DNA of 64,000 nucleotides from an uncultured bacterium (GTDB lineage: Bacteria > Hydrothermota > Tepidihabitantia > CAYHGV01). The first letter of the stretch is position 1; each line of letters opens with the position of its first letter. A model generated the notes under the pieces. It was not told the DNA's origin and did not search any database. It saw only the letters and a program-made list of their open reading frames with translations. The position numbers and the translations under genes are program-made. This document shows, in pieces, positions 3,128 through 62,770 of the stretch. Where the stretch lies: NCBI GenBank assembly GCA_964356135.1, contig CAYHGV010000001.1, positions 8,179 through 72,178 on the forward strand, read 5' to 3'.

Positions 3128-4051
3128 ATGGTAGGTTCGGTACTAAAAATACTCTTCTCCTTCCTTATTTTCCCGGGATTTTTATTCGCCGCGATTGTCG
3201 GGTTCTTCTTAACCTGGTTCGACCGGATGGTTTCCGCCCGCATCCAGTGGCGGGTCGGGCCGCCCTGGTTTCAGCCGTTTGCCGATTTTTTCAAGCTGCT
3301 CTTGAAAGAATCGACGATACCGGACGGAGTACCCCGGGTCATTTTTCTCGGTGCACCGATACTCAGTCTTACCGGCATTACGATAGCGGCGGCAATGCTC
3401 GGGTTTATGAATCTCTATCCCCGGAGTTCATTTATCGGGGATCTGGTCGTGGTGGTCTATTTTTTAGCTTTTGTTCCCTTAGGGATAGTTATCGGTGGTT
3501 CAGCTTCCAAGAATCCGTTAGGAGTGGTGGGGGCAATACGGGAGATGAATCTCTATTTCGCCTATGAACTGCCGTTACTGATCTGCGTCGTTCTGGCGAT
3601 AATCAAGACGCACAGCCTCAAAATCGGAGAGATGATTCTCTACCAGCAGGCGCACGGTCCGGTGCTGTATTCAGTATCGGGCGCAATCGCATTCGTTGTT
3701 GTGCTGATAGCGACCCAGGCGAAGCTGGGCTATGCGCCGTTCGATATTCCCGAGGCCGAGCAGGAGATTATGGCCGGACCGTATATTGAGTATTCGGGGG
3801 TGGCGCTGGCGCTGTATAAGCTTACCCGGGCAATCACTTTTTTTGTGATGCCGGTGTTGATGATCACTATTTTCTGGGGCGGCGTGCGCGACCTCTGGGC
3901 AATTCCAAAATTTATTCTCATTGTAGTTCTGGTCATTCTCATAAAAAATACCAATCCTCGACTGCGAATCGACCAGGCACTGAAATTCTTCTGGTTCGGT
4001 TTAGGAACGGCTTCCGCGGTCGGTATGATCCTGGCGTTAACCGGACTATGA
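3128..4051 (+). CDS. Membrane subunit of the NuoH/HycD/MbhM family. The ORF track begins at 3086; the ATG at 3128, which has a GGGGA hexamer upstream, is the more likely start.
   Basis: The protein is polytopic and hydrophobic, with RIQWRVGPPWFQPFADFFKLLLKE, which is the NuoH signature R.GP..G..QP.AD..K. The downstream gene overlaps it by 4 nt. Confidence 0.75.
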   Translation: MVGSVLKILFSFLIFPGFLFAAIVGFFLTWFDRMVSARIQWRVGPPWFQPFADFFKLLLKESTIPDGVPRVIFLGAPILSLTGITIAAAMLGFMNLYPRSSFIGDLVVVVYFLAFVPLGIVIGGSASKNPLGVVGAIREMNLYFAYELPLLICVVLAIIKTHSLKIGEMILYQQAHGPVLYSVSGAIAFVVVLIATQAKLGYAPFDIPEAEQEIMAGPYIEYSGVALALYKLTRAITFFVMPVLMITIFWGGVRDLWAIPKFILIVVLVILIKNTNPRLRIDQALKFFWFGLGTASAVGMILALTGL

Positions 4052-44470: not shown

Positions 44471-45151
44471 TTACTTAAAAACTATAACCTTCTTCACGCT
44501 CCTTAACTTTCCGGCAGTAAGGTTGATAAAATAGACCCCCTGCGCATTACCGGTCATATCCAGTTGGAGATGATAATTTCCGCGTTCCTGCACGCCATCC
44601 GCCAGCCTCTTGATTTCTCGTCCGGCTATATCGTAGACGCTTAATGCAACCTCACCTCTTGCAGGTATTTGATAGCTGATTGTCGTTGTCGTGGAGGTTG
44701 GATTTTGACCAAGACGCAGATTTGGACTCTCTACTGTGAGATTTGAATTTTCCTCCACACCTCCTTCCGGACCTAATCTGATGAGATAAACATCAGCCCC
44801 ACCTGCCCCGTAAGAAGTAGTCATGCCTGCGATGATATAACCGCCATCATCGGTCTGCACCACTGAATTGCCCCTATCTCCACCACTGCCGCCACAGGCT
44901 TTTGTCCAGAGTGTATCGCCATTGGCATCAGTCCTGATGAGATAAACATCACCACTACCTTTGGTGTAATACCCGATCATACCCGCTATAATATATCCAC
45001 CATCACCCGTCTGCGCCACTGAATGGCCTGCATCCCAATCACCGCCGCCATATGTTTTTGTCCAGAGCGTATCTGGTGGTTGGGCAGGTACCGTGTTCGG
45101 AAATAGCACTGCTACCATTACCACTAAACCTAATATTTTTATTCTCTTCAT
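44471..45151 (-). CDS. Secreted beta-propeller-repeat protein with a type IX secretion C-terminal sorting domain. It is a paralogue of 49403..50392.
   Basis: Signal peptide MKRIKILGLVVMVAVLF. Repeats of the form DTLWTKTYGG..D.G.SV.QT.DGGYIIAG. A C-terminal NPTSTTTTISYQIP...GVYFINL...KKVIVFK, which is typical of the T9SS sorting domain. The ORF track extends to 45328, but that stretch is unlikely to be coding. Confidence 0.7.
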   Translation of the reverse strand: MKRIKILGLVVMVAVLFPNTVPAQPPDTLWTKTYGGGDWDAGHSVAQTGDGGYIIAGMIGYYTKGSGDVYLIRTDANGDTLWTKACGGSGGDRGNSVVQTDDGGYIIAGMTTSYGAGGADVYLIRLGPEGGVEENSNLTVESPNLRLGQNPTSTTTTISYQIPARGEVALSVYDIAGREIKRLADGVQERGNYHLQLDMTGNAQGVYFINLTAGKLRSVKKVIVFK

Positions 45152-45552
45152 TTTTCCTCCATGTTTTTGCTCATTTTGGTTATTGCCCATTAAGTGCGGT
45201 GTTCCCCTGAGACCTTCCTTTGAATCCTCTGTTTGGGACAAACCATCATCACCGATACTTGTTCTGTAACCCATATAATTCCTTGCCTTACGACAAATTA
45301 AGCCGTAAAGCGGTTTTGCCAAGCACAATATTTGGTAGGTTTTTCAATGGCTTTTTTATAACTTCCTGGTTATAGACGGCTACCTCAACCTCAACCGGTA
45401 AGTCTTTTTACGGAATATTTGACATAGTGCGAATCGAGCCCTAGATTAGAGCGCAGGACGTCAAATAGATTACCTACAATTTAATGAGAAAATTCTCAGG
45501 AACTTTTTCCGAGTTGTGGCTTCAGCGCAATCTTAAATCTGTCAATTAAATT

Positions 45553-45757: not shown

Positions 45758-48700
45758 TCAGCGAATAAGAGTGAACTTTCTTGTGGCAGTATAGTGCGAC
45801 GTCTCCATCCGAACGAAGTAAATGCCCATTGCCACCGCTTGCCCCTTGTCATCAATACCACTCCAGGTGATGGTTCTATAACCCGGGTCGTGATTGATTC
45901 CCTCCTCCAAAGTTCGAACCTGTTTACCGGTGATGTCATAAATCCCGAGCCGCACCACGGTTCGATGAGGCAACCCATAGCGAATCTCAACCGTGCCCGG
46001 GCTTGGGTTAGACTGAAGCAAAGTCATAGAGAAACTTTTCGGGACCTCGTCGCTCTGCTCCTCTACGCCCACAGCAGTCAACCAGACCGACTTCGAATCG
46101 TTCGCCGAAGCTGTATCGCCACTCCACTGAGTTGTGACGGTCATCTGGAATAACCCCCGACCGGATACAGTCCAATTTGGAAAAGAAATCTTCTGAGTTG
46201 TATCAGCACCGAGTGTAGCTACTGAAACAGTGTCGTCATAAACCGATGTTACGCCTTTGACAATTTTACACGTAACATCGAAACTGACTGGGGAGGTACC
46301 GTAGTTTTTAACCGTTGCTTGTGGAATATAACTACGGTTAACCTGGACTGGTGAAGTGGGGACGTCAATCGAAACAACCCCCACATCGCCTTTATTGTCT
46401 ACCGCAACGACATCCCATGATAGTTGGTCATCACTCGCGTCCTGGTCATTGGGCAGTGAAGTCCAGGCGGTGATGATATAGGTCGTGCCTGCCGGCGGCT
46501 CGACCGTCCACGTTTCGAAGCTCTGGCTTTTCACTTCGCTTCCGTTCAATCCAGCACAGTCCTCGCTCACGAGGTAGATGACCGTGCTGCCGTCTTCTAT
46601 CTTCAACGAACACGGAAAACTTTCGGTCGCACCCGGTGTCATATTAGTCAATTCGACTGTCGGCGTATAGTCATTGCCGACAACGACTGTGTCCAGGGGC
46701 TCAAGCGGATTTGTAACCGCAACCCCGCCCGTCGTATAGTAAGTTTTCGCCTGCCAATTATTACTCGGGTCGACATCGTTGGTGATGGTCGTGTAGACCG
46801 AATCACGATAGATGACACCGATGCGCTTAAATGTTGTCCACGGAGAAAAAGTAACTTCCCGGCTTTCGCCTGGAGCGAGGTTTTTGACGAGAGTTGGAAA
46901 CCTATGCACGGACACGCTGTTAGTATCGACCTGCCAAATTAGAGTAAAACTCTGGGGAGTCGTGCCGAGATTCACAACAGTCGCCTTCGGGTCATACTTA
47001 TAACCGGTCCAGAGGGTATCCTTGGTGGGATTAGTGATAGCGGTCACGGCGATATCGATCGGTGGAGCCGCCCCAGTAAAGCGCAGTACCCAGAGTCCAG
47101 CATGCCCGGCCGCGAGGTAGATTAAGGTATCCTGCACCACATCAATCCCCCAAGCATGATCGGTTGTTATATAAAAACCGGCGCCGAGAAACGAACCCGG
47201 TGTCGTGACATCAAAAACAAACAATCCATTGTATGCTGCCAGGTAAGCATAATCTCCCGCGACAATAACATCATGAGCAGGGCCGGTGCCTTCACTCCCG
47301 ACATCCGAAGGGCTCGCTGGATTAGAGACATCGAAGCAATGGATGCCGGTCGCTCCTCCATAGTCCGCGATATACGCGTAGTTGCCACTAACCCAGACCC
47401 CTTGCGCATCATCTAATCCGCTGCCTGAGCCCACCAGCGTCGGACTCGCCGGGTTAGCCATATTTAGAATCTCGAGTCCGCCGGTGCCGTCCGCGACATA
47501 GAGCAGCGTATCCCGGCAAAACAGCCCGGATGCCTGACCGGGCGTGTCATAAAAACCAATTTCGGTGAATGGCGCCCGGTAATCAATCACCCGTACGCCG
47601 TTATCGCCTGCCGCCACAATCATGAGCGAGTCATTGTAGTGAATTACATCGTTTGCCCGACCCGCCGTTACCAGACGACCCAATTCCAGTGGCACCCCTG
47701 GGATGGTAATATTGTAAGTCGCAACCCCGGAATCTCCATCCGCGGCAAAGAGCGTATCTAAGTAGGTATTGACACCAGTGAGGTCACCCGGGGTATTCGA
47801 ATAACTATAGATAGGCAGGTTTACCGGGTCCGAGCCATCAAATATAACCAAACCGTAAACCCCGTCCGCCAAGCACGCCAAGGGTGGCGAAAAAGCGGTT
47901 TCGACTGTAACATCCCTGGCAATATCCGGTGTTACATGGACTCCTACTTGAACAGGATAACCAGGGTTCGACATGACATCGAAAATTCGCAGCCCCCCTT
48001 CTTCGGCTGCGACATAACCATAATTGGCATCAGCCCACACCCGGTCTGCACTCCCGACCGTCGCAACGGTAGAAACCACCGAAGGATTGGAGGGATTCGA
48101 TACATTGACCGTAACCAGCCCGGCCGTTCCATCGGCGACATAGGCAAGTGAGCCGACTACATAGATATCGTTCACCCCTGCGGTCAGGGTAGTACGCCCT
48201 ACCCGAGTGGGTGCGGTCGGGTCGGAAATATTGATAACATCGAAAGTCTGGGAACCAAATGGCACATACCCACCAGTGTAAGCATAATTACCCGAAACAA
48301 AAATACAAGAGCTGTTATCACTATAAGTCCCGACTTTAGTGGGAGCTGCTGGGTTTGAGATGTCAAAAATAACGAGACTGGTGGGACCTGCCACATAGAC
48401 ATAATTACTCTGGACAGCAACCCCGATTGCTTCGACGGGCTCGGTTGTCGAAGCGACCTCGGTCGGGTTCGTAGGGTCCGAAATATCGACGACCCGGAGA
48501 TGGCCAGACTTATCGGCAATATACGCGTAGTTGCCGGCGATATCAATTCCTACTGCTTCCCCCGGTGTATCGAGTCCCCCAAGCACCACCGGATTCGACG
48601 GCGTTGAGATATCGTAAATAACAATCCCATTCAATCCGTCAGCCAAAAAGGCAGTATTGCCAACGACCTTGAGGTCATATATCACACCCGATGTTGGCGA

Positions 48701-48958
48701 TTGCCCGGTTAGCGTCGGGCTCGCTGGATTGGATACATTGACCGCCTGAAATCCACCCCAGGCTCCAGTATAGGCATAACCGTTGGCTGCCCAGACTGAA
48801 CGACAAGGGCCGTAAGACCATCGACCAATCGAATAGACATTCAAGGAATCCGCGCCGACGGTCCAGAAGAGCGCCGAGGAGAAAACCATACCCACCATTA
48901 ACGCCATCTCTCCCCAACTCTTTTTTATAATATTATTTTTCTTCATTCGATCGATCAT
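45758..48958 (-). CDS. Large secreted T9SS cargo protein with N-terminal LVIVD beta-propeller repeats, CARDB-like domains and a T9SS C-terminal sorting domain.
   Basis: The protein is 1066 aa. It carries repeated blocks of the form YAY(I/V)AD..GL.I(F/V)DISNP..P. The C-terminal ...GIYFVRMETSHYTATRKFTLIR is the sorting domain. Confidence 0.7.
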   Translation of the reverse strand: MIDRMKKNNIIKKSWGEMALMVGMVFSSALFWTVGADSLNVYSIGRWSYGPCRSVWAANGYAYTGAWGGFQAVNVSNPASPTLTGQSPTSGVIYDLKVVGNTAFLADGLNGIVIYDISTPSNPVVLGGLDTPGEAVGIDIAGNYAYIADKSGHLRVVDISDPTNPTEVASTTEPVEAIGVAVQSNYVYVAGPTSLVIFDISNPAAPTKVGTYSDNSSCIFVSGNYAYTGGYVPFGSQTFDVINISDPTAPTRVGRTTLTAGVNDIYVVGSLAYVADGTAGLVTVNVSNPSNPSVVSTVATVGSADRVWADANYGYVAAEEGGLRIFDVMSNPGYPVQVGVHVTPDIARDVTVETAFSPPLACLADGVYGLVIFDGSDPVNLPIYSYSNTPGDLTGVNTYLDTLFAADGDSGVATYNITIPGVPLELGRLVTAGRANDVIHYNDSLMIVAAGDNGVRVIDYRAPFTEIGFYDTPGQASGLFCRDTLLYVADGTGGLEILNMANPASPTLVGSGSGLDDAQGVWVSGNYAYIADYGGATGIHCFDVSNPASPSDVGSEGTGPAHDVIVAGDYAYLAAYNGLFVFDVTTPGSFLGAGFYITTDHAWGIDVVQDTLIYLAAGHAGLWVLRFTGAAPPIDIAVTAITNPTKDTLWTGYKYDPKATVVNLGTTPQSFTLIWQVDTNSVSVHRFPTLVKNLAPGESREVTFSPWTTFKRIGVIYRDSVYTTITNDVDPSNNWQAKTYYTTGGVAVTNPLEPLDTVVVGNDYTPTVELTNMTPGATESFPCSLKIEDGSTVIYLVSEDCAGLNGSEVKSQSFETWTVEPPAGTTYIITAWTSLPNDQDASDDQLSWDVVAVDNKGDVGVVSIDVPTSPVQVNRSYIPQATVKNYGTSPVSFDVTCKIVKGVTSVYDDTVSVATLGADTTQKISFPNWTVSGRGLFQMTVTTQWSGDTASANDSKSVWLTAVGVEEQSDEVPKSFSMTLLQSNPSPGTVEIRYGLPHRTVVRLGIYDITGKQVRTLEEGINHDPGYRTITWSGIDDKGQAVAMGIYFVRMETSHYTATRKFTLIR

Positions 48959-49402: not shown

Positions 49403-50392
49403 CTACTGCAAAACTATAACCTTCTTCACGCTCCTTAACTTTCCGGCAGTAAGGTTGATAAAATAGACCCCTTGAGCATAACCGGTCAGATTTAGTTGCA
49501 GATGATAATCACCACGCTCCTGCACATTAGCCACCAACCTCTTGATTTCACTTCCGCTTATATCGTAGACGCTTAATGAAACCTCGCTCCTTACAGGTAT
49601 TTGATAACTGATTGTCGTTGTCGTGGAGATTGGATTTTGACCGAGACGCAGATTTGGACTCTCTAATGTGAGATTTGAATTTTCCTCAACGCCTGTTTCA
49701 GGGCCTAACCGGATGAGATAAACATCCCGATCACCTGCTCCGAAAGACTCGGTATAGCCTGCAATGATATAACCCCCATCACTGGTCTGGGCCACTGAAC
49801 GGCCCCCATCATTATCACTCCCGCCGTAGGTTTTTGTCCAGAGCGTGTCGCCATTGGTATCGGTCCTGATGATATAAACATCAACATCCCCTGCCCCGAA
49901 AGAACCGGTCTCGCCAGCGATGATATAGCCGCCATCATCAGTCTGCACCACAGACCAGCCATATTCATCGCCCTCACCGCCATAGGTTTTTGTCCAGACG
50001 GAATCGCCATTGCCATCGGTCTTGATGAGATAAACATTTCCGTTATTTTCTACGTAAGGCCGAGTCCGACCAGCAATGATATAGCCTCCATCACTTGTCT
50101 CGACCATTGAGTATGCCTTATCTATATAACTACCACCATAGATTTTTGTCCAGCACATGTCTCCAAGGCTATCGGTCTTGATTAGATAAATATCACTACC
50201 CTCTGCCCCGTAAGATGTATAACCTGCGATGATATAGCTGCCATCTGCGGTTACTTCCACTGTATACCCCATATCATTTGCGCTACCTCCGTAGGTTCTT
50301 GTCCAGAGCGTGTCCGGTGGTTGAGCAGGGGCCATGTTCGATAATAGCACCACTGCCAATACCACTAACCCTAATATTTTTATTCTCGTCAT
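49403..50392 (-). CDS. Secreted beta-propeller-repeat protein with a T9SS C-terminal sorting domain (5 repeats). It is a paralogue of 44471..45151.
   Basis: Signal peptide MTRIKILGLVVLAVVLL; five repeats; a sorting domain that is nearly identical at the nucleotide level to that of the 44471 gene (about 85 nt around 49403-49490 against 44471-44560). Confidence 0.7.
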   Translation of the reverse strand: MTRIKILGLVVLAVVLLSNMAPAQPPDTLWTRTYGGSANDMGYTVEVTADGSYIIAGYTSYGAEGSDIYLIKTDSLGDMCWTKIYGGSYIDKAYSMVETSDGGYIIAGRTRPYVENNGNVYLIKTDGNGDSVWTKTYGGEGDEYGWSVVQTDDGGYIIAGETGSFGAGDVDVYIIRTDTNGDTLWTKTYGGSDNDGGRSVAQTSDGGYIIAGYTESFGAGDRDVYLIRLGPETGVEENSNLTLESPNLRLGQNPISTTTTISYQIPVRSEVSLSVYDISGSEIKRLVANVQERGDYHLQLNLTGYAQGVYFINLTAGKLRSVKKVIVLQ

Positions 50393-50822
50393 TTTTTCCT
50401 CCCTTCCCTGCACATTTTGGGTCTTAAACATTGATTGTGGAGTTGCGTTGAGGTCGTCGCATAAATTCCCCACTTTCGATAATCCAATACTCCCTGTAGT
50501 TTTTCTGTAACCCATTTCGCTCCTTACGACAAAATAAGCTATAAAACGGTTGTGTCAAGTGCAAATTATTATCTTAATGGCTCGTCTGTTAATGAATGGT
50601 GGAGATTGACTTTGAGAACACAAAAATCAAAAAGTTATGAGTTCGTATAATCCCTCTTATCAGGACTGGATAAAATTCTTTCAATAGACCGCTCTGCTCC
50701 ATTCTCTATCCGGTCCAGGGCGTGGACATGGGTCGAGTGGTGGTCAATCGGATTTATTCGACTTTCCCGGCTATTGGTTTAACATTGACAAGGCCAGTAT
50801 TTTCAATGAGAATGTAATCACA

Positions 50823-52838: not shown

Positions 52839-53093
52839 ATGGCAGTAGTCAAGGTATCATCTAAGGGTCAGGTCGTTATCCCAAAGGAACTCCGGAAAAA
52901 GTATGGAATAAAACCTGAGACCGAAGTCCTGATTTCGGACGTCAACGGAAAGATTGTTGTCGCTCCGTTGTTGGAAGACGCGGTCCGCCAGTCGAAAGGA
53001 GTTTTAAAAGGTGGAAGGTCTTTGACTAAGGCATTGCTTGCAGCAAGAAAATTAGAGCGCGAACAGGATGGGAAAAAGATACGTTATAGATAG
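52839..53093 (+). CDS. vapB: AbrB/MazE/SpoVT-type antitoxin.
   Basis: SKGQVVIPKELRKKYGIKP swapped-hairpin motif. It overlaps vapC by 26 nt. Confidence 0.8.
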   Translation: MAVVKVSSKGQVVIPKELRKKYGIKPETEVLISDVNGKIVVAPLLEDAVRQSKGVLKGGRSLTKALLAARKLEREQDGKKIRYR

Positions 53094-53460
53094 CTTTGCT
53101 TTGCTTGCCTATCTTCAAGGCGAAGCCGGAGCTGAGTTGGTGGAAAAAGTCCTTAAGGATAAAGATTGCGAGGTGTTCCTGTGCACTATCAATTTAGGCG
53201 AGGTCTATTATGTCATCGCTAAAGAGCGGGGTGAGGACGAGGCTGAAAAGGCGCTTCTGATTATCGAGCAGCTGCCCATAAGACAAGAGGATTCGACCAA
53301 AGAATTGACTTTGAAGGCGGCAAGGATTAAAGCGAAATTCCCAGTTGCGTATGCCGATGCGTTTGTAGCAGCAATGGCGCAAGAGAAGGGTGCTGTCATT
53401 CTTACCGGTGACCCGGATTTTGAGAAAATCGAAGGGATTAAAATTGAATGGCATAGGTGA
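53068..53460 (+). CDS. vapC: PIN-domain ribonuclease toxin.
   Basis: YVIDSFALLAYL (D4), E..., ADAFVAA and GDPDF acidic residues of the PIN fold. Confidence 0.85.
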   Translation: MGKRYVIDSFALLAYLQGEAGAELVEKVLKDKDCEVFLCTINLGEVYYVIAKERGEDEAEKALLIIEQLPIRQEDSTKELTLKAARIKAKFPVAYADAFVAAMAQEKGAVILTGDPDFEKIEGIKIEWHR

Positions 53461-56721: not shown

Positions 56722-56982
56722 TCAAATACTTTCAGTCTCGGGTTCGAGATTATAGTAGTTTGTCCAGAAAACGACGGTTTTGTGTGCTAACCCACGTTTG
56801 GCTTTAACCACCTGTTTCAGGTTAGTATCGGAATAGGTCCGGCGCAACCAGTTGAGTGCACGCACATCACCGAAATCGAGCACCCGCCGGATGATGAATT
56901 GAGAATGGCGGTCGATGTCAACCGTTTCCTTTCGGACATCCCAGAAGAGACGCTGGACATAGGAGGGGATGAGCCGTTTCAT
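56722..56982 (-). CDS. Hypothetical 86-aa protein. It is about 90% identical to the product of 57703..57969.
   Basis: ORF. The paralogue pair was noted by direct comparison. No family is recognised. Confidence 0.45.
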   Translation of the reverse strand: MKRLIPSYVQRLFWDVRKETVDIDRHSQFIIRRVLDFGDVRALNWLRRTYSDTNLKQVVKAKRGLAHKTVVFWTNYYNLEPETESI

Positions 56983-56985
56983 TAA

Positions 56986-57207
56986 TTAAATGCTCAGTTC
57001 CACCATTTCTGCATTTGGTTTTGCCCGGATGAAACCTGCCAGAACTTCACCGAGGAACCTACTCGCATTTAATATCTCAACTTCGATCGGTTGGTTTTTG
57101 TCGTCATAGTTGATGATTATTTGACCGAAGTCTTCGCCGTGGTGAATTTGTCCATCGTTTAAAAGGAGATCTAATGTATCTCCTTGAGCGTCATATCTTA
57201 TCTTCAT
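56986..57207 (-). CDS. DUF2283-family small protein (putative antitoxin partner of DUF4258).
   Basis: MKIRYDAQGDTLDLLL...IIINYDDKNQPIEVEILNAS matches the DUF2283 pattern. Confidence 0.7.
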   Translation of the reverse strand: MKIRYDAQGDTLDLLLNDGQIHHGEDFGQIIINYDDKNQPIEVEILNASRFLGEVLAGFIRAKPNAEMVELSI

Positions 57208-57447
57208 ATCTCCTCCTTTCAGCTGGATATAATGTTACTATAATTTTATCACCAGCCTTCTCTTCGTATATTACTCTTAATACCAAATCATCAGTCAGTA
57301 CAGTTTGGGCAATCTTGCGCCCCAAGTAGCCATCGGCAATCTTCTCTGGTTTTTCAATTACCTTGACGACCTTCTCCTTCGTAATCCCGATTTCCTTCAG
57401 ACGAGATAGTTTATCTTCGGCATGGGGGGGGTAAATTTAACAGCCAT
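57191..57447 (-). pseudogene. DUF4258-family (toxin-like) gene interrupted by a C8 homopolymer tract (G8 on the plus strand at 57424-57431). Adding one C restores an 85-codon ORF.
   Basis: Minus strand: ATGGCTGTTAAATTTACC then C8 then ATGCCGAAG... With 9 C's it reads MAVKFTPPHAEDKLSRLKEIGITKEKVVKVIEKPEKIADGYLGRKIAQTVLTDDLVLRVIYEEKAGDKIIVTLYPAERRRYEDKI*. With 8 C's it reads MAVKFTPPMPKINYLV*. Confidence 0.55.
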
Positions 57448-57702
57448 TGAACAATGGTAACTAAAGACAAATAGGTGTCAAGTTTTGGTTTAAAAACTGG
57501 CCGGTGCATAGGAATTCAAAAATAAATAAGTGATTTGGTCTTTATTGCGCCGATCCGTTTCTGCGGTGCCGACCTCCTGCCCGTGTCAACTCGATACTCG
57601 TTCAAGGTGATATAGAACCAACTCTTGGGCGAAAAGCGGTATTACTTCTTTACTTATGCCTGACCCCATTAACCTGACCCTGGTTCTTGGGAAAGGACTT
57701 CG

Positions 57703-57969
57703 TCAAACACTTTGGGTTTCGGGTTCGAGGTTATAGTAGTTTGTCCAGAAGACAACGGTTTTGTGTGCTAACCCGCGCTTGGTTTCGACAATGTTTTTTA
57801 ACTTAGTATCAGAATAGGTCCGGCGAAGCCAGTTGAGTGCACGCGCATCACCAAAATCGAGCACCCGCCGGATGATGAATTGAGAATGGCGGTCCGGGTC
57901 AACCGTTTCTTTGCGGACATCCCAGAAGAGACGCTGGACATAGGAGGGAATTGACCGTTTCATAGCCAC
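57703..57969 (-). CDS. Hypothetical 88-aa protein, paralogue of 56722..56982.
   Basis: ORF with about 90% amino-acid identity to the 86-aa paralogue. It is preceded by a ~120-bp repeat that is also found at 57545-57665. Confidence 0.45.
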   Translation of the reverse strand: MAMKRSIPSYVQRLFWDVRKETVDPDRHSQFIIRRVLDFGDARALNWLRRTYSDTKLKNIVETKRGLAHKTVVFWTNYYNLEPETQSV

Positions 57970-58261
57970 ACTATAAATCGGATATCACCAAAGTCAAGTT
58001 TTCGATCGGTTTTTGACCGTTTACTGAATTTGGGTCAAAAAAAGGGGAGTTTATTCTACCGATCCGTCCTTATGGCACCGATCGGTTGCCCGTGTCCACC
58101 CGATACTCATTCAAGGCGGTTTAGACCCACCTTTTGGGCGAAAAGTTGTTATATTTCTTTACTTGTCCTGCCACAGGATTTCCCTTGGGAAAAAAGGTCG
58201 CTTTTCCCATTTTCCTGTCCCAAAAAATAGTCACTGCTTCCTATCAGCCCCAAAGTCAAAA

Positions 58262-59290
58262 CTATTTCTGTGATTTAATAAGTTTGAGCGAACGATTCAA
58301 CTGTAAAAGGAGAATAGCTTGAATCCCTTTGGGAGTTATGTAAAAATGATTAGCAACTTTCGCTAAAAACTCTAATTCACAGGCATAATTTGAGAAAATA
58401 TAAGTAGCAGTCTCTCGTGCTCTGTCTGTTTTCCAGGTTTCACCTTTACCGACGGATTTCACGAAATAATCTTGGACGGCATCCTTGGGTACTGGATAAA
58501 CGTTTTTCGCTAATACAAAGACAGACTCAACAATGGAAAAAATGGTATAAGTTATTGAAGAATGGAATGGATTTTCTTTTACAAAATCTGATAATAATTC
58601 AATCTGTTTATCATTTAATCTATCATCTACCATTCCACCACCTGCGTCTAAAAGGGCATTCCCAAGATCTGTTAAAAAATATTCCTGCTTAAATTTAGCG
58701 ACAAGGCCCAGTAATGTCGCTACTGATAAACGATTTCTGACAGTCTTTTCTGATCTGTTTTCAATGGTGCAAATATCTTTAATGTTTTTGCCTTGAGCCA
58801 ATATTTGTAATATAGGATTAAGTAGACCGAGTCTGACCATACCATAGTCGCCAGATTGTATTTTCAGAAAATACGAAAGCTCTTTGAAATTTTCATAGTA
58901 TTTCGAGAGAACGAATTCGGGTTTATAGGTTAGAAGTGTAATAGAGTTTTCTTTACATCTTTCAATATCTTCAGTTCTAGCCTCTGTTACCAGTATAAAT
59001 TTTCTGATTTCTACATTTATTAATTTATGTTGGGTTTGTAAATCTTGTAGATCCTTGAAATACGCGTTAATTTGACAAATTATATCACTGCAAAAAGCAC
59101 CGATTTTCAATTCAATGAGAAGTAATTCATCTTCATGCAGATAGATTAGGTCAAGTTTCCCAGTTTTTAAGATTTTTTGACGGGCTATAAAACTTAAGTT
59201 AGCAGGATTTGCCGAAAGAATTTCCGCTAAAATGGATTTATCGGCGCTCAAAATATCCTCAATCATTTTTTCTGAAATCAAATCATTCAT
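58262..59290 (-). CDS. Hypothetical protein with an N-terminal PD-(D/E)xK nuclease-like motif, encoded in an AT-rich island.
   Basis: GKLDLIYLHEDELLLIELKIG (D...ExK). GC content is about 33%, against about 55% for the flanks. Confidence 0.55.
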   Translation of the reverse strand: MNDLISEKMIEDILSADKSILAEILSANPANLSFIARQKILKTGKLDLIYLHEDELLLIELKIGAFCSDIICQINAYFKDLQDLQTQHKLINVEIRKFILVTEARTEDIERCKENSITLLTYKPEFVLSKYYENFKELSYFLKIQSGDYGMVRLGLLNPILQILAQGKNIKDICTIENRSEKTVRNRLSVATLLGLVAKFKQEYFLTDLGNALLDAGGGMVDDRLNDKQIELLSDFVKENPFHSSITYTIFSIVESVFVLAKNVYPVPKDAVQDYFVKSVGKGETWKTDRARETATYIFSNYACELEFLAKVANHFYITPKGIQAILLLQLNRSLKLIKSQK

Positions 59291-59511
59291 TCTTCGATAT
59301 ATGGGTAAAAATTTTGCTCGTCGGTAATTTTAAGCCCTTCGACTAACCATTCTCTTATTATATCTCTAATCTCTCCAATCATTTCTATGTCCCATTCGAT
59401 ATTTTTCTTGGTAGGATTTACCATTAGAATAAGTTGATAAATAGCATTATCAACAAAATCTTGTCTATCAATTTGTTCACGCGTCAATTTTTTCATGTCG
59501 TTTCTACTCAT
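59287..59511 (-). CDS. Hypothetical 74-aa protein. It overlaps the start of the PD-(D/E)xK gene (ATGA) within the same AT-rich island.
   Basis: ORF with a 4-nt overlap to the downstream gene and matching low GC. Confidence 0.4.
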   Translation of the reverse strand: MSRNDMKKLTREQIDRQDFVDNAIYQLILMVNPTKKNIEWDIEMIGEIRDIIREWLVEGLKITDEQNFYPYIEE

Positions 59512-59846
59512 AGGTAGAGAATTGCTTTGCTGTTAGGGTCCAATTTCGCCGAATTTCTTTAAGCCAAGTTGACCTCACATTCTCTGTTTCATCAATCTGG
59601 TTCATTATTCAGTCCCTTTTTTAACTCTCATAGCTGTAATATACAGAAAACATCTGAGTTGTCAACTAAAAAAATGGGGATTTCTGAAAAAGTCATCAGA
59701 AATCTTGATTACTCGGCACCAAAGGTGCCGCGCGATTATATGACGATGCCGGTGATACAATCCCTTGAATTTCCATCGCTGCAATCGTTTCCCTCATCGC
59801 CGGAATCAATGAGAGCGAGTTTTTCAGAGCTCTCGAAGGTTTCCCT

Positions 59847-59874
59847 TGACAAAATTCTTGAATTTGCTATACTT
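59847..59874 (+). promoter_or_regulatory. Sigma70-like promoter (TTGACA, 16 nt, TATACT) for the cold-shock protein gene.
   Basis: Read directly; an AAGGAGG ribosome-binding site follows at about 59914. Confidence 0.55.
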
Positions 59875-59931
59875 AGTTAAGTCTGAACCTTATGGTTAAA
59901 TCTTAGGCTTGCAAGGAGGATTGATAATCCT

Positions 59932-60257: not shown

Positions 60258-60590
60258 TTAACCATAGATAACATTCCCTTCGTCTTTAGCCGCGTTGATT
60301 ATTATAGAATCGCCTTGCTCCCATTCGGTATCCGAATAATACATAATGTCAAACGGTTTTTCGGTCTTTTTTACCAGTTCTCTATTTACGCCGGTTGTCA
60401 TATCCACCCTTTCAAATATGTCTTTATTCCGAAAATCTTTAGAAACAATTATTATATCGATATCACTATTTTTGTTATGATTGCCTTTTGCGTATGAGCC
60501 GAAAACGATTATCTTTGAAACCCGGATGCTTCGGTCTTTGAGCAATTTTAATAAGAGGTCGGTTATTTTTATCTTCTTTGTTCTAACCAT
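60258..60590 (-). CDS. Minimal nucleotidyltransferase (MNT-type, Pol-beta superfamily) without an adjacent HEPN partner.
   Basis: IIVFGSYAKGNHNKNSDIDIIIV shows the GS...DxD nucleotidyltransferase motif. Confidence 0.7.
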   Translation of the reverse strand: MVRTKKIKITDLLLKLLKDRSIRVSKIIVFGSYAKGNHNKNSDIDIIIVSKDFRNKDIFERVDMTTGVNRELVKKTEKPFDIMYYSDTEWEQGDSIIINAAKDEGNVIYG

Positions 60591-60646: not shown

Positions 60647-62770
60647 TCAAAAATAAACGAGGTATTTTATCTTTATCGCTCCAACCTGGTTCTGGAGTGC
60701 GAGCCGACCGTCGGAGGCTTGCTGCCGGTAGTCGGTAATGGCTATGTAGAACCAGGACTTAGGTCGAAAGTTCCATGAAAAGAGCAGACCGAAACGGTTG
60801 GCGGTAAAATCGACCTCGCCTAAGTTGGTTTGGGGAATGGAAAAGACGAGCTGGTCAAAGATGCCGATACTCATCGTATTGGTTATAATAAAATCGACCC
60901 GCGGAGTCGCGGTCGGGGTCAGCGCCAGAACTGAATTCAGTGTATCCCACTCAACCCAGAGGTTGGAAGCGAGGGAAAGGTTCAACAGCGAGATTGTGTA
61001 ATTCATCGATAACCACTGTGAACCCTGGTAGGCAAGAAATCCCCGGAGCCAGTTGTAACCGTACCACACGGTGCCACCAAAATTGGCATTAAATTTTGAG
61101 CTGCTTGCCCAGACTACCAGATTGGCGCTGCGGCTCACGTAATGGGTGTCCGCTTCATAATAATCGCCTGCCCCGCCATCGAGATTGAAACCCCAGTTGC
61201 TGCGGAAATTGACATTGACCACACCAAAAGCCGTTTTCGACCAGTTCGCCGAGCCCGGTTCTTGAACGATTCCGGCACCCGGACCGAACCAGAAACTCCG
61301 GACTGCGCCCTGGGGGTAGATGGTGAACGGTCCGGTTAATGTCTTAAACGTTTTTCTTCCTGCCCAGGGAACATAACCGATATCGCTGACGTCAAAGGAA
61401 TCGTCGATAACTTCAGCACTCGCCATCAAGAGAAAGTTCTTGATGAAACCATTGTAGCCGGATGAGAACGCCCAGCCGGGTTTACGGTTTTTATCGCTCA
61501 CCGCCGCCTGGGCAATGAGCTGGTTCGCACCGGAATGGTAGACACCATCCAGACCGAGGGCGTAATTGTAGTTGTCCCGGTCAACCGCAGTAGCGCTGGA
61601 TAAAAGCCCGAGGTCGAGTGTCGGCAGAAGCTTGTGCCGGGCACGGACAACGGCAAACGCCCGTTCGGGTTCGACCGTTGTCTGTAAGGTATCGTCAATC
61701 AATTCATGAACCCGACCGGTGTAAGCGCCGAAGCCGCCGAGATTCCAGGTTTCGGTTTTACCCGTGATTTTAAGGCCTCCAATGATCGGTACCGCGGAAT
61801 TACCAATCGACTTTCCGATCCGGCGCGAATAGAAAATTGACAGCGGTGAATAGAATTCGCTTTCGTCGCCAAAATCTGACATTCGGAAGATGTCTTTTCC
61901 CTCAAGAAAGAATGGACGCCGTTCAGAAAGGTAGGTTTCGTAGCGCGACAGGTTGATGGTGTAGGGGTCGGATTCGATCTGGGCAAAATCAGGCAAAACG
62001 GTGCCGTTAAGGGTGACCTCGGGGGTTATATCCCATTTGACATTTAAACTTGCGCTTGCTTTAACCTTGCCCCGTTGTTCTTCTATTCGGTCAGCGCGCA
62101 CAAAACCTTCGGGGTAGAGTTCAAAATAGTAACCGGTGGATTGGGGTTGTATCGACCGCAGGACTCCAAATTTTGAGACCAGGAATCCTTCTTTTTGGTC
62201 GTATTCGGTCCAGAAGGTATTCTCCTGGTTCTCGGCAAAATACCGGCGAAAATTTATTCCCCATTCGGACAGGTTCTTTTTATAACGGATCGACTTGAAC
62301 GGAATTTTGAATTCGACTTCATACCGGTCATCATAGACCTTGACCGCATAGAACCATACCCCATCCCAGGAATCATCCGAAGTCCGGCCATCGTCCAGTA
62401 TCCAGCCATCCTGAGCGCAGCCGGTCGGGGTTAATCGAAAGTAGTAGGCGGTTGTCTTGCTGCCAAAGGGGTCAATGAAGAGGACTACCCGGTCTTCATA
62501 CGCGCTGAGCGAGACGACCGGTTTGAGCTTCTTCGCCCAGCATCGGAATGCGACATAGAGATTGTGCCTGTCCTGTAAGAGATAGACGACGGTTGGGTCA
62601 GAGGCTGGGACCTTTTCATACGGTTGGTGCTGGATAAAATCGAACGCCGAGTCCGCTGCCTGCCAGATTTCTTCAATAAAGCCATCGATGACGGGCGGCG
62701 TGTCGGCAATCCGCATCTCGACCGATTTGGGACTGCCTATAATGAAAAAACACAGTGCTAAATAATTCAT
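60647..62770 (-). CDS. Outer-membrane protein with an N-terminal CBM9/DOMON-like domain and a C-terminal beta-barrel (DUF5916-like).
   Basis: TPPVIDGFIEEIWQ resembles the CBM9-like fold. The protein is 707 aa and ends KYLVYF, a C-terminal aromatic. Confidence 0.6.
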   Translation of the reverse strand: MNYLALCFFIIGSPKSVEMRIADTPPVIDGFIEEIWQAADSAFDFIQHQPYEKVPASDPTVVYLLQDRHNLYVAFRCWAKKLKPVVSLSAYEDRVVLFIDPFGSKTTAYYFRLTPTGCAQDGWILDDGRTSDDSWDGVWFYAVKVYDDRYEVEFKIPFKSIRYKKNLSEWGINFRRYFAENQENTFWTEYDQKEGFLVSKFGVLRSIQPQSTGYYFELYPEGFVRADRIEEQRGKVKASASLNVKWDITPEVTLNGTVLPDFAQIESDPYTINLSRYETYLSERRPFFLEGKDIFRMSDFGDESEFYSPLSIFYSRRIGKSIGNSAVPIIGGLKITGKTETWNLGGFGAYTGRVHELIDDTLQTTVEPERAFAVVRARHKLLPTLDLGLLSSATAVDRDNYNYALGLDGVYHSGANQLIAQAAVSDKNRKPGWAFSSGYNGFIKNFLLMASAEVIDDSFDVSDIGYVPWAGRKTFKTLTGPFTIYPQGAVRSFWFGPGAGIVQEPGSANWSKTAFGVVNVNFRSNWGFNLDGGAGDYYEADTHYVSRSANLVVWASSSKFNANFGGTVWYGYNWLRGFLAYQGSQWLSMNYTISLLNLSLASNLWVEWDTLNSVLALTPTATPRVDFIITNTMSIGIFDQLVFSIPQTNLGEVDFTANRFGLLFSWNFRPKSWFYIAITDYRQQASDGRLALQNQVGAIKIKYLVYF

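Follow-up and report, generated by a model that had tools for sequence, protein, structure and literature searches.

Does a run of eight cytosines near the 5' end of a small toxin-like gene switch that gene off and on, is it an error of sequencing, or has the gene been broken? The question is raised by one locus in a 64,000-nucleotide (64-kb) stretch of DNA from an uncultured bacterium, the whole of which is called the window here. On the minus strand the sequence reads ATGGCTGTTAAATTTA, then C8 (CCCCCCCC), then ATGCCGAAG (starting ATGCCG), and the gene interrupted in this way lies upstream of an intact gene of the DUF2283 family. The initial annotation took the run for a candidate phase-variation tract that would reversibly inactivate the toxin of a toxin-antitoxin pair, and named a homopolymer sequencing error as the alternative. 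We favor the possibility that the run marks a genuine, recent, lineage-specific frameshift that inactivates the toxin of a leaderless toxin-first module, an explanation that we consider probable. The features of the locus, in the order of transcription, are these:

57476..57481, minus strand: -35 hexamer TTGACA of the operon promoter (TTGACA-16 nt-TACCAT)
57454..57459, minus strand: -10 hexamer TACCAT of the same promoter, ending 6 nt before the ATG
57397..57447, minus strand: reading frame as present, from the ATG through 16 codons (MAVKFTPPMPKINYLV) to a TGA stop
57424..57431, minus strand: C8 run (G8 on the plus strand), codons 6-8, a net +2 nt relative to orthologues
57191..57424, minus strand: body of the DUF4258-like toxin gene, from CAT (His) to EDKI and TGA, out of frame with the ATG
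57212..57216, minus strand: GGAGG Shine-Dalgarno sequence of the DUF2283 gene, inside the ERRR codons of the toxin and 4 nt before the DUF2283 ATG
56986..57207, minus strand: intact DUF2283 gene, 73 aa, presumed antitoxin or partner, with a PF10049 match
56722..56982, minus strand: DUF6922 gene, starting 3 nt after the DUF2283 stop

Translation of the sequence as it stands, from the ATG at 57447, gives MAVKFTPPMPKINYLV and stops after 16 codons, just as the initial annotation had described for a gene reading into eight C's. The 85-aa protein that it quoted for nine C's is indeed what the 9C allele encodes; 6C (84 aa) and 12C (86 aa), which it did not mention, restore the frame as well, and runs of 7, 8, 10 or 11 are out of frame. 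Its run length of eight was correct but the string that it quoted (TTTACC followed by eight C's) was not, since this overcounts by two and the sequence has exactly C8 after TTTA. Codons 6-8 hold a repeat tract, C8, whose length sets the reading frame. Downstream of it the toxin body begins with the His codon CAT (57424-57422, minus strand) and carries no second lesion; the nearly invariant family residues H4, A5, V22, P29, A42, R53, V54, T67, Y69 and Y76 are all kept, and dN/dS relative to two related loci, L001 and L012, is 0.08-0.16. Given the absence of a second lesion and these low ratios, the lesion, if the gene is a pseudogene, must be very young. The C run does not correspond to normal coding usage, as the dicodon CCC-CCC is not used for any of the 20 Pro-Pro pairs that 18 long ORFs of the window encode.

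An alternative in-frame start 3' of the tract was considered and rejected. The frame that leads into the His opens after a TAA with just ATT TAC CCC CCC, and the first ATG, GTG or TTG in the frame of the toxin body is a TTG that yields a 44-aa C-terminal fragment without the conserved His. At the other end of the gene, the toxin stop (TGA, 57191-57193) lies beyond the DUF2283 start (ATG, 57205-57207), so that the two genes overlap by 17 nt, an overlap that had already been pointed out. The GGAGG of the DUF2283 gene is kept in L001 and L012.

With regard to the identity of the toxin, its assignment to DUF4258 by the initial annotation stands at the level of family and fold, and not by the Pfam threshold for the gene's own sequence. 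The repaired protein scores 18.0 bits against PF14076 (E 0.0036, profile positions 7-70 of 71) and the frame as read from the window scores 18.3 bits, whereas the gathering score is 25. When 1.8 billion representative proteins were searched with a profile, 495 toxin relatives were found at E<=1e-3, and 27 of 40 aligned relatives matched DUF4258 (E<=0.01; best E 1.6e-10), the next families among these 40 being PBECR3 (3 members) and BrnT (2 members). An AlphaFold2 model of the toxin on the relatives' alignment (pLDDT 91.7) predicts a compact alpha/beta fold in which two N-terminal helices are packed on an antiparallel sheet, consistent with the BECR/RelE-ParE fold. There was no match for either gene of the pair in NCBIfam or PADLOC, and no sequence match of the toxin to solved structures. 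[quoted passage not shown] The toxin is presumed to be an RNase.

The DUF2283 protein is presumed to be the neutralising partner of the toxin. That its gene is intact, as was originally stated, is clear from a match to the whole of PF10049 (42.5 bits, E 7e-11, profile positions 1-49 of 49; gathering cut-off 23). Pfam recognised no DNA-binding domain in it, and a protein 100% identical to it is present in NCBI (P0155). Look-ups of the exact DUF2283, MetRS and DUF6922 proteins, aimed at other assemblies of the strain, gave no record. DUF2283 has been equated with the ICE activator FseA in one paper, which is not relied on here. In the papers searched, we found no experiments on this toxin/DUF2283 pair.

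For comparison we used 91 loci that encode relatives of the toxin and three further loci (L092-L094) that were reached via the partner gene, giving a set of 94. The sources are Bathyarchaeia, a Thermococci MAG, Candidatus Stahlbacteria and, for many loci, metagenome contigs without an assignment. In 87 of the 91 loci, in bacteria and archaea alike, the toxin is followed directly (at -40 to +120 nt) by a DUF2283 homologue, and two of the four loci that lack it are cut by a contig end. Type II toxin-antitoxin loci consist of two small genes in the same orientation that overlap or abut and that stay paired across unrelated genomes, and both the 17-nt overlap and the pairing seen here conform to this. 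The position of DUF2283 in these loci points to a tight, toxin-first, two-gene module of DUF4258-like and DUF2283 genes, and the earlier view of the pair as a module is upheld. As defined here the module would extend across Bathyarchaeia and several bacterial lineages, and it is unlike the antitoxin-first DUF4258 arrangements in the literature. The DUF6922 gene at 56722..56982 is probably co-transcribed with the pair. It is absent 3' of DUF2283 in L012 and L092, and is not a conserved part of the module.

A sigma-70-like promoter of the form TTGACA-16/17 nt-TAnCAT, ending 6 nt before the start codon, is common to the window and its three closest relatives (57454-57481 on the minus strand of the window, 126-155 in L001 and about 3881-3910 in L092). 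In the window, TTGACA-16 nt-TACCAT matches the consensus at 10 of 12 positions. CTTGACA is kept in L001, L012 and L092, the counterparts of the -10 hexamer at the same distance are TATCAT in L001 and TAGCAT in L092, and the sequence farther upstream diverges. No Shine-Dalgarno sequence was found before the toxin ATG. Because the -10 hexamer ends only 6 nt before this ATG, the mRNA of the module is probably leaderless or nearly so.

The site of the C run can be followed through the whole comparison set. In every related locus (94/94) the encoded motif is [F/L]-[T/S]-x-His-Ala, in which a single residue separates [T/S] from the nearly invariant His. None of the 94 has a poly-C tract at this site and none has a C run there longer than 4-5 nt. 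In the nearest relatives the site reads ACGCCCCAT and ACACCCCAT, where C4 is interrupted by G or A, and the codons are ACG CCC CAT in L001 (whose toxin is 81-82% identical to that of the window at the amino acid level), ACA CCC CAT in L012 and ACC CCG CAT in L092. When aligned as DNA, TTTACCCCCCCCATG of the window stands against TTTA--CGCCCCATG and TTTA--CACCCCATG, and the window is longer by 2 nt exactly here. It follows from this difference that the canonical in-frame state corresponds to the 6C length. The 6C allele would encode the canonical Thr-Pro-His, but a -2 change is needed to reach it from C8. The 9C product would contain Thr-Pro-Pro-His, and this Pro-Pro-His spacing is absent from the 94 loci and from 154 family representatives. 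The absence of the run from relatives, together with the two additional nucleotides at the site, indicates that the run is a lineage-specific product of substitution and slippage and not a conserved feature. The C8 run is the sole G/C run of at least 7 nt in the window; between 0.2 and 0.7 G/C runs of at least 8 nt are expected per window, depending on the Markov order (an analytic estimate), and finding one such run in 64 kb is compatible with chance. Its position exactly at the 2-nt length difference from in-frame orthologues is not.

These findings bear directly on slipped-strand phase variation, in which the C run would be a contingency tract with the toxin OFF at 8C and ON at 9C or 6C. 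An 8-nt tract at the 5' end of an ORF, here codons 6-8, is in the classical position for such a switch, and the ORF is otherwise intact with a low dN/dS. Furthermore, to get from the ancestral spacing to eight, the run must have slipped by 2 nt at once or slipped two or more times, which means that it has been unstable. Even this reading has precedent: homopolymer-tract indels recur in M. tuberculosis, including in the toxin-antitoxin bicistrons that encode vapC2 and mazF6 (PMC10334774). However, orthologues of a contingency locus retain the tract at varying lengths and no relative has it here, the ON allele that is a single step away would have the unprecedented Pro-Pro-His, and the canonical allele is two nucleotides away. 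There is just one long G/C run in 64 kb, with no need to invoke more than chance for the count. In addition, the relatives lose the toxin by stops, deletions and other frameshifts, which looks like neutral decay rather than regulated switching, and the organism appears to be an environmental bacterium of the FCB group and not of the host-adapted type that is typical of contingency loci. We therefore regard phase variation as unlikely, and the main claim of the initial annotation is not borne out, given that the tract and the spacing of its ON allele occur in no relative and that the toxin is lost by other means in roughly 10% of loci. If phase variation were nevertheless at work, it would amount to bet-hedging of toxin, persistence or defence activity, and the partner would be produced in either state. 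Distinctly unlikely, in our view, is a young but functional slipped-strand switch of a BECR-fold toxin, with DUF2283 made constitutively, in an uncultured environmental bacterium of the FCB group. Such a switch would mean population-level bet-hedging of a toxin-antitoxin or defence module outside the host-adapted pathogens with known contingency loci, and heterogeneity of the tract, if real, would be a rare example of toxin homopolymer switching in an environmental bacterium.

The same run could also be a product of sequencing or assembly, the true genome having nine C's (or six) and an intact toxin. This would fit with the ORF behind the run being fully preserved: purifying selection on it is strong, and none of the nearly invariant residues is missing. 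Several platforms are known to perform poorly on G/C homopolymers of 8-9 nt, and C8 is the longest single G/C run in the window; moreover, some related MAGs have indels in the toxin gene, L010 for example, part of which may be assembly noise. Our reasons for nevertheless judging an error at this position to be unlikely are that: (i) the window has no second long homopolymer at which a frame is broken, and no split genes were found in it; (ii) five of the six A/T 8-mers (at 460, 14366, 19946, 27387 and 33480) are inside intact ORFs, and most A/T 7-mers and other G/C 6-mers are also inside intact ORFs, of 150-730 aa; (iii) every gene of the window with a Pfam match spans the full profile (for example MetRS 1-390/391, RrnaAD 5-261/263, TatD 1-253/253) and (iv) a -1 error from a true C9 needs an additional Pro immediately ahead of the conserved His, a spacing seen in 0/94 loci and 0/154 representatives, and a true C6 would need a +2 error, rarely made by any platform. 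The location of every other long in-ORF run in an intact ORF makes a systematic homopolymer error unlikely, and, with in-ORF runs of at least 7 nt in intact long ORFs and Pfam matches over full profiles, the alternative offered by the initial annotation is weakened.

It might further be supposed that the 8C template still yields full-length toxin, through -1 ribosomal frameshifting at C CCC CCC or slippage of RNA polymerase on the run. C-CCC-CCC does fit the pattern X XXY YYZ, and a tandem -1 slip on it would lead to exactly the 9C product, MAVKFTPPHAEDK... Against this, a stimulatory structure is missing downstream (all 200 shuffled sequences fold better than the 108 nt that start at the ATG, z = +2.4), no SD-like element lies upstream, and the slippery site is present in no relative. 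All-C heptamers and G/C runs are also poor substrates for -1 frameshifting and transcriptional slippage, which favor A/U. Recoding is therefore very improbable. As a candidate in its own right, a programmed -1 frameshift site was rejected, the heptamer being present but the downstream structure and the conservation being absent.

That the toxin gene can be lost while its partner is kept is evident from the related loci. Lesions in the toxin were found in 9 of the 91 loci (approximately 10%), and in eight of these nine, L082 being the exception, the DUF2283 homologue is still directly downstream:

L001, the nearest relative: TAT>TAG premature stop, which removes the conserved YPxRRxRYE tail
L023: in-frame TGA
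L010, L084, L085, L086, L087 and L091: frameshifts or deletions
L082: broken 3' end

Single-lesion copies are the commonest state among the broken relatives. In L092-L094 all that is left of the toxin is a 28-codon stub abutting the DUF2283 ATG, and DUF2283 is 84% identical to that of the window. Taking the closest lineages together, the toxin has been lost in three of four (the window, L001 and L092), through three kinds of lesion, and the partner has been kept in all of them. Toxin losses that vary in kind with the partner kept are the asymmetry expected of toxin-antitoxin decay, and no switch is needed to account for them. The broken-toxin rate of approximately 10% also provides a base rate against which any single frameshift in this toxin family can be judged.

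Several details of these loci are recorded here as separate observations. The stub of L092, MAIILTPHAKDKLLRLVEIGITKEKIIK*, is located at 3916-4003 behind the same conserved promoter and ends at the DUF2283 ATG. L092-L094 are on the JGI contigs Ga0346505_10757265, Ga0346702_10714820 and Ga0401129_0000668, where the orphan DUF2283 gene lies between a cytidine deaminase gene and a gene for a T9SS-tailed protein. In L010 (MAG CAWDYC010000003.1, Bathyarchaeota), the toxin has two single-base gaps at 3960-4005 relative to the near-identical L008, which may be real or assembly noise. Some representative proteins, P0070, P0078 and P0118 for example, are visibly translations of frameshifted toxin copies.

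A plausible scenario for a genuine and recent frameshift in the window is as follows. The ancestral codons would have been Thr-Pro-His (ACN CCC CAT), with a C4 run as in the nearest relatives. A change at a third position could have turned this into a C6 run, and replication slippage would then have added two C's, although we infer the order of these steps. Translation from the sole available start would end after 16 codons, with the protein from the conserved His onward not being made, and DUF2283 would still be translated from its own GGAGG. This would represent the usual first step of toxin-antitoxin decay, in which loss of the toxin is harmless and loss of the partner is not. A run of eight C's is within the length range in which slippage is frequent in some bacteria. 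C8 would thus be intrinsically prone to slippage, and rare C9 or C6 revertants are conceivable; we see no sign of a selected switch. Also in favor of decay is a neighborhood in flux, with two remnants of DUF5916 3' ends, duplicated DUF6922 genes flanking the pair and toxin-antitoxin-like genes nearby. The intact toxin body and the low dN/dS count against decay, and the same picture would be expected from a selected switch or from a sequencing error. As regards annotation, the locus is best described as a frameshifted DUF4258-like toxin pseudogene with an intact DUF2283 gene beside it, rather than as a phase-variable system.

The surroundings of the pair are as follows. Two DUF6922 paralogues, at 56722-56982 and 57703-57969 (both minus strand; 86 and 88 aa, 55-57 bits), are 87% identical in DNA and form direct repeats 981 nt apart that flank the toxin/DUF2283 pair, which looks like a cassette inside a duplicated unit. 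At 57516-57655 and 58050-58164 there are two 115-nt direct repeats (76% identical) that are decayed remnants of a DUF5916-type C-terminal end (...PKSWFYI...GAIKxKxLxYF*), the second copy with stop codons; an intact DUF5916-type gene is located at 60647-62770. An intact MazE-type antitoxin and PIN-domain toxin pair (VapBC-like; 52839-53093 and 53068-53460, plus strand) sits between a PHP-domain gene and an Asp/Asn-tRNA ligase gene. The gene at 60258-60590 (minus strand) encodes a small MNT-like nucleotidyltransferase (PADLOC PDC-S09, 7.6e-14) with no recognised HEPN partner, and the 103-aa ORF that adjoins it (59569-59880, plus strand) had no matches. The 342-aa protein encoded at 58262-59290 (minus strand) belongs to no Pfam family and has faint CARF/Csa3-like PADLOC matches (E about 3e-4); a 74-aa ORF that precedes it with a 4-nt overlap (59287-59511, minus strand) had no matches.

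Farther away, the genes at 44471-45328, 45758-48958 and 49403-50515 (minus strand) encode secreted proteins with T9SS C-terminal sorting domains (Por_Secre_tail, FlgD_ig) and nine LVIVD repeats. Sorting domains of this kind suggest that the organism belongs to the FCB group. The rest of the window contains housekeeping genes (nuo-type complex I genes, MetRS, KsgA, TatD). Neither tRNA genes nor Rfam families were found in the 64 kb, and hence neither an integration site nor a riboswitch offers an explanation.

In comparison with known systems, the toxin resembles DUF4258 (PF14076) in its size of approximately 80 aa, its N-terminal His-Ala motif and its RVVYEE...VITxYP core. The modules differ, in that those described for DUF4258 are antitoxin-first, with MqsA-type fusions (PMC11980606), whereas the subfamily in the window is toxin-first with a DUF2283 partner; the DUF4258 example from Synechocystis pairs with HicB. 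What the window shares with the contingency loci of Neisseria, Haemophilus, Campylobacter and Helicobacter is an 8-nt G/C run early in an ORF, the length of which sets the frame. Unlike in those loci, the tract of the window is not conserved in orthologues, such runs are not enriched in the 64 kb, and both the gene class and the type of organism are atypical. Decaying chromosomal type II toxin-antitoxin modules share with the window a disrupted toxin beside an intact partner that has its own ribosome-binding site, independent lesions in relatives that end in a stub (L092), and a location among toxin-antitoxin-like genes (MazE/PIN, MNT, DUF6922) and gene remnants. The one difference from such modules is that the lesion in the window is in a homopolymer and would, in principle, revert more readily than a stop or a deletion.
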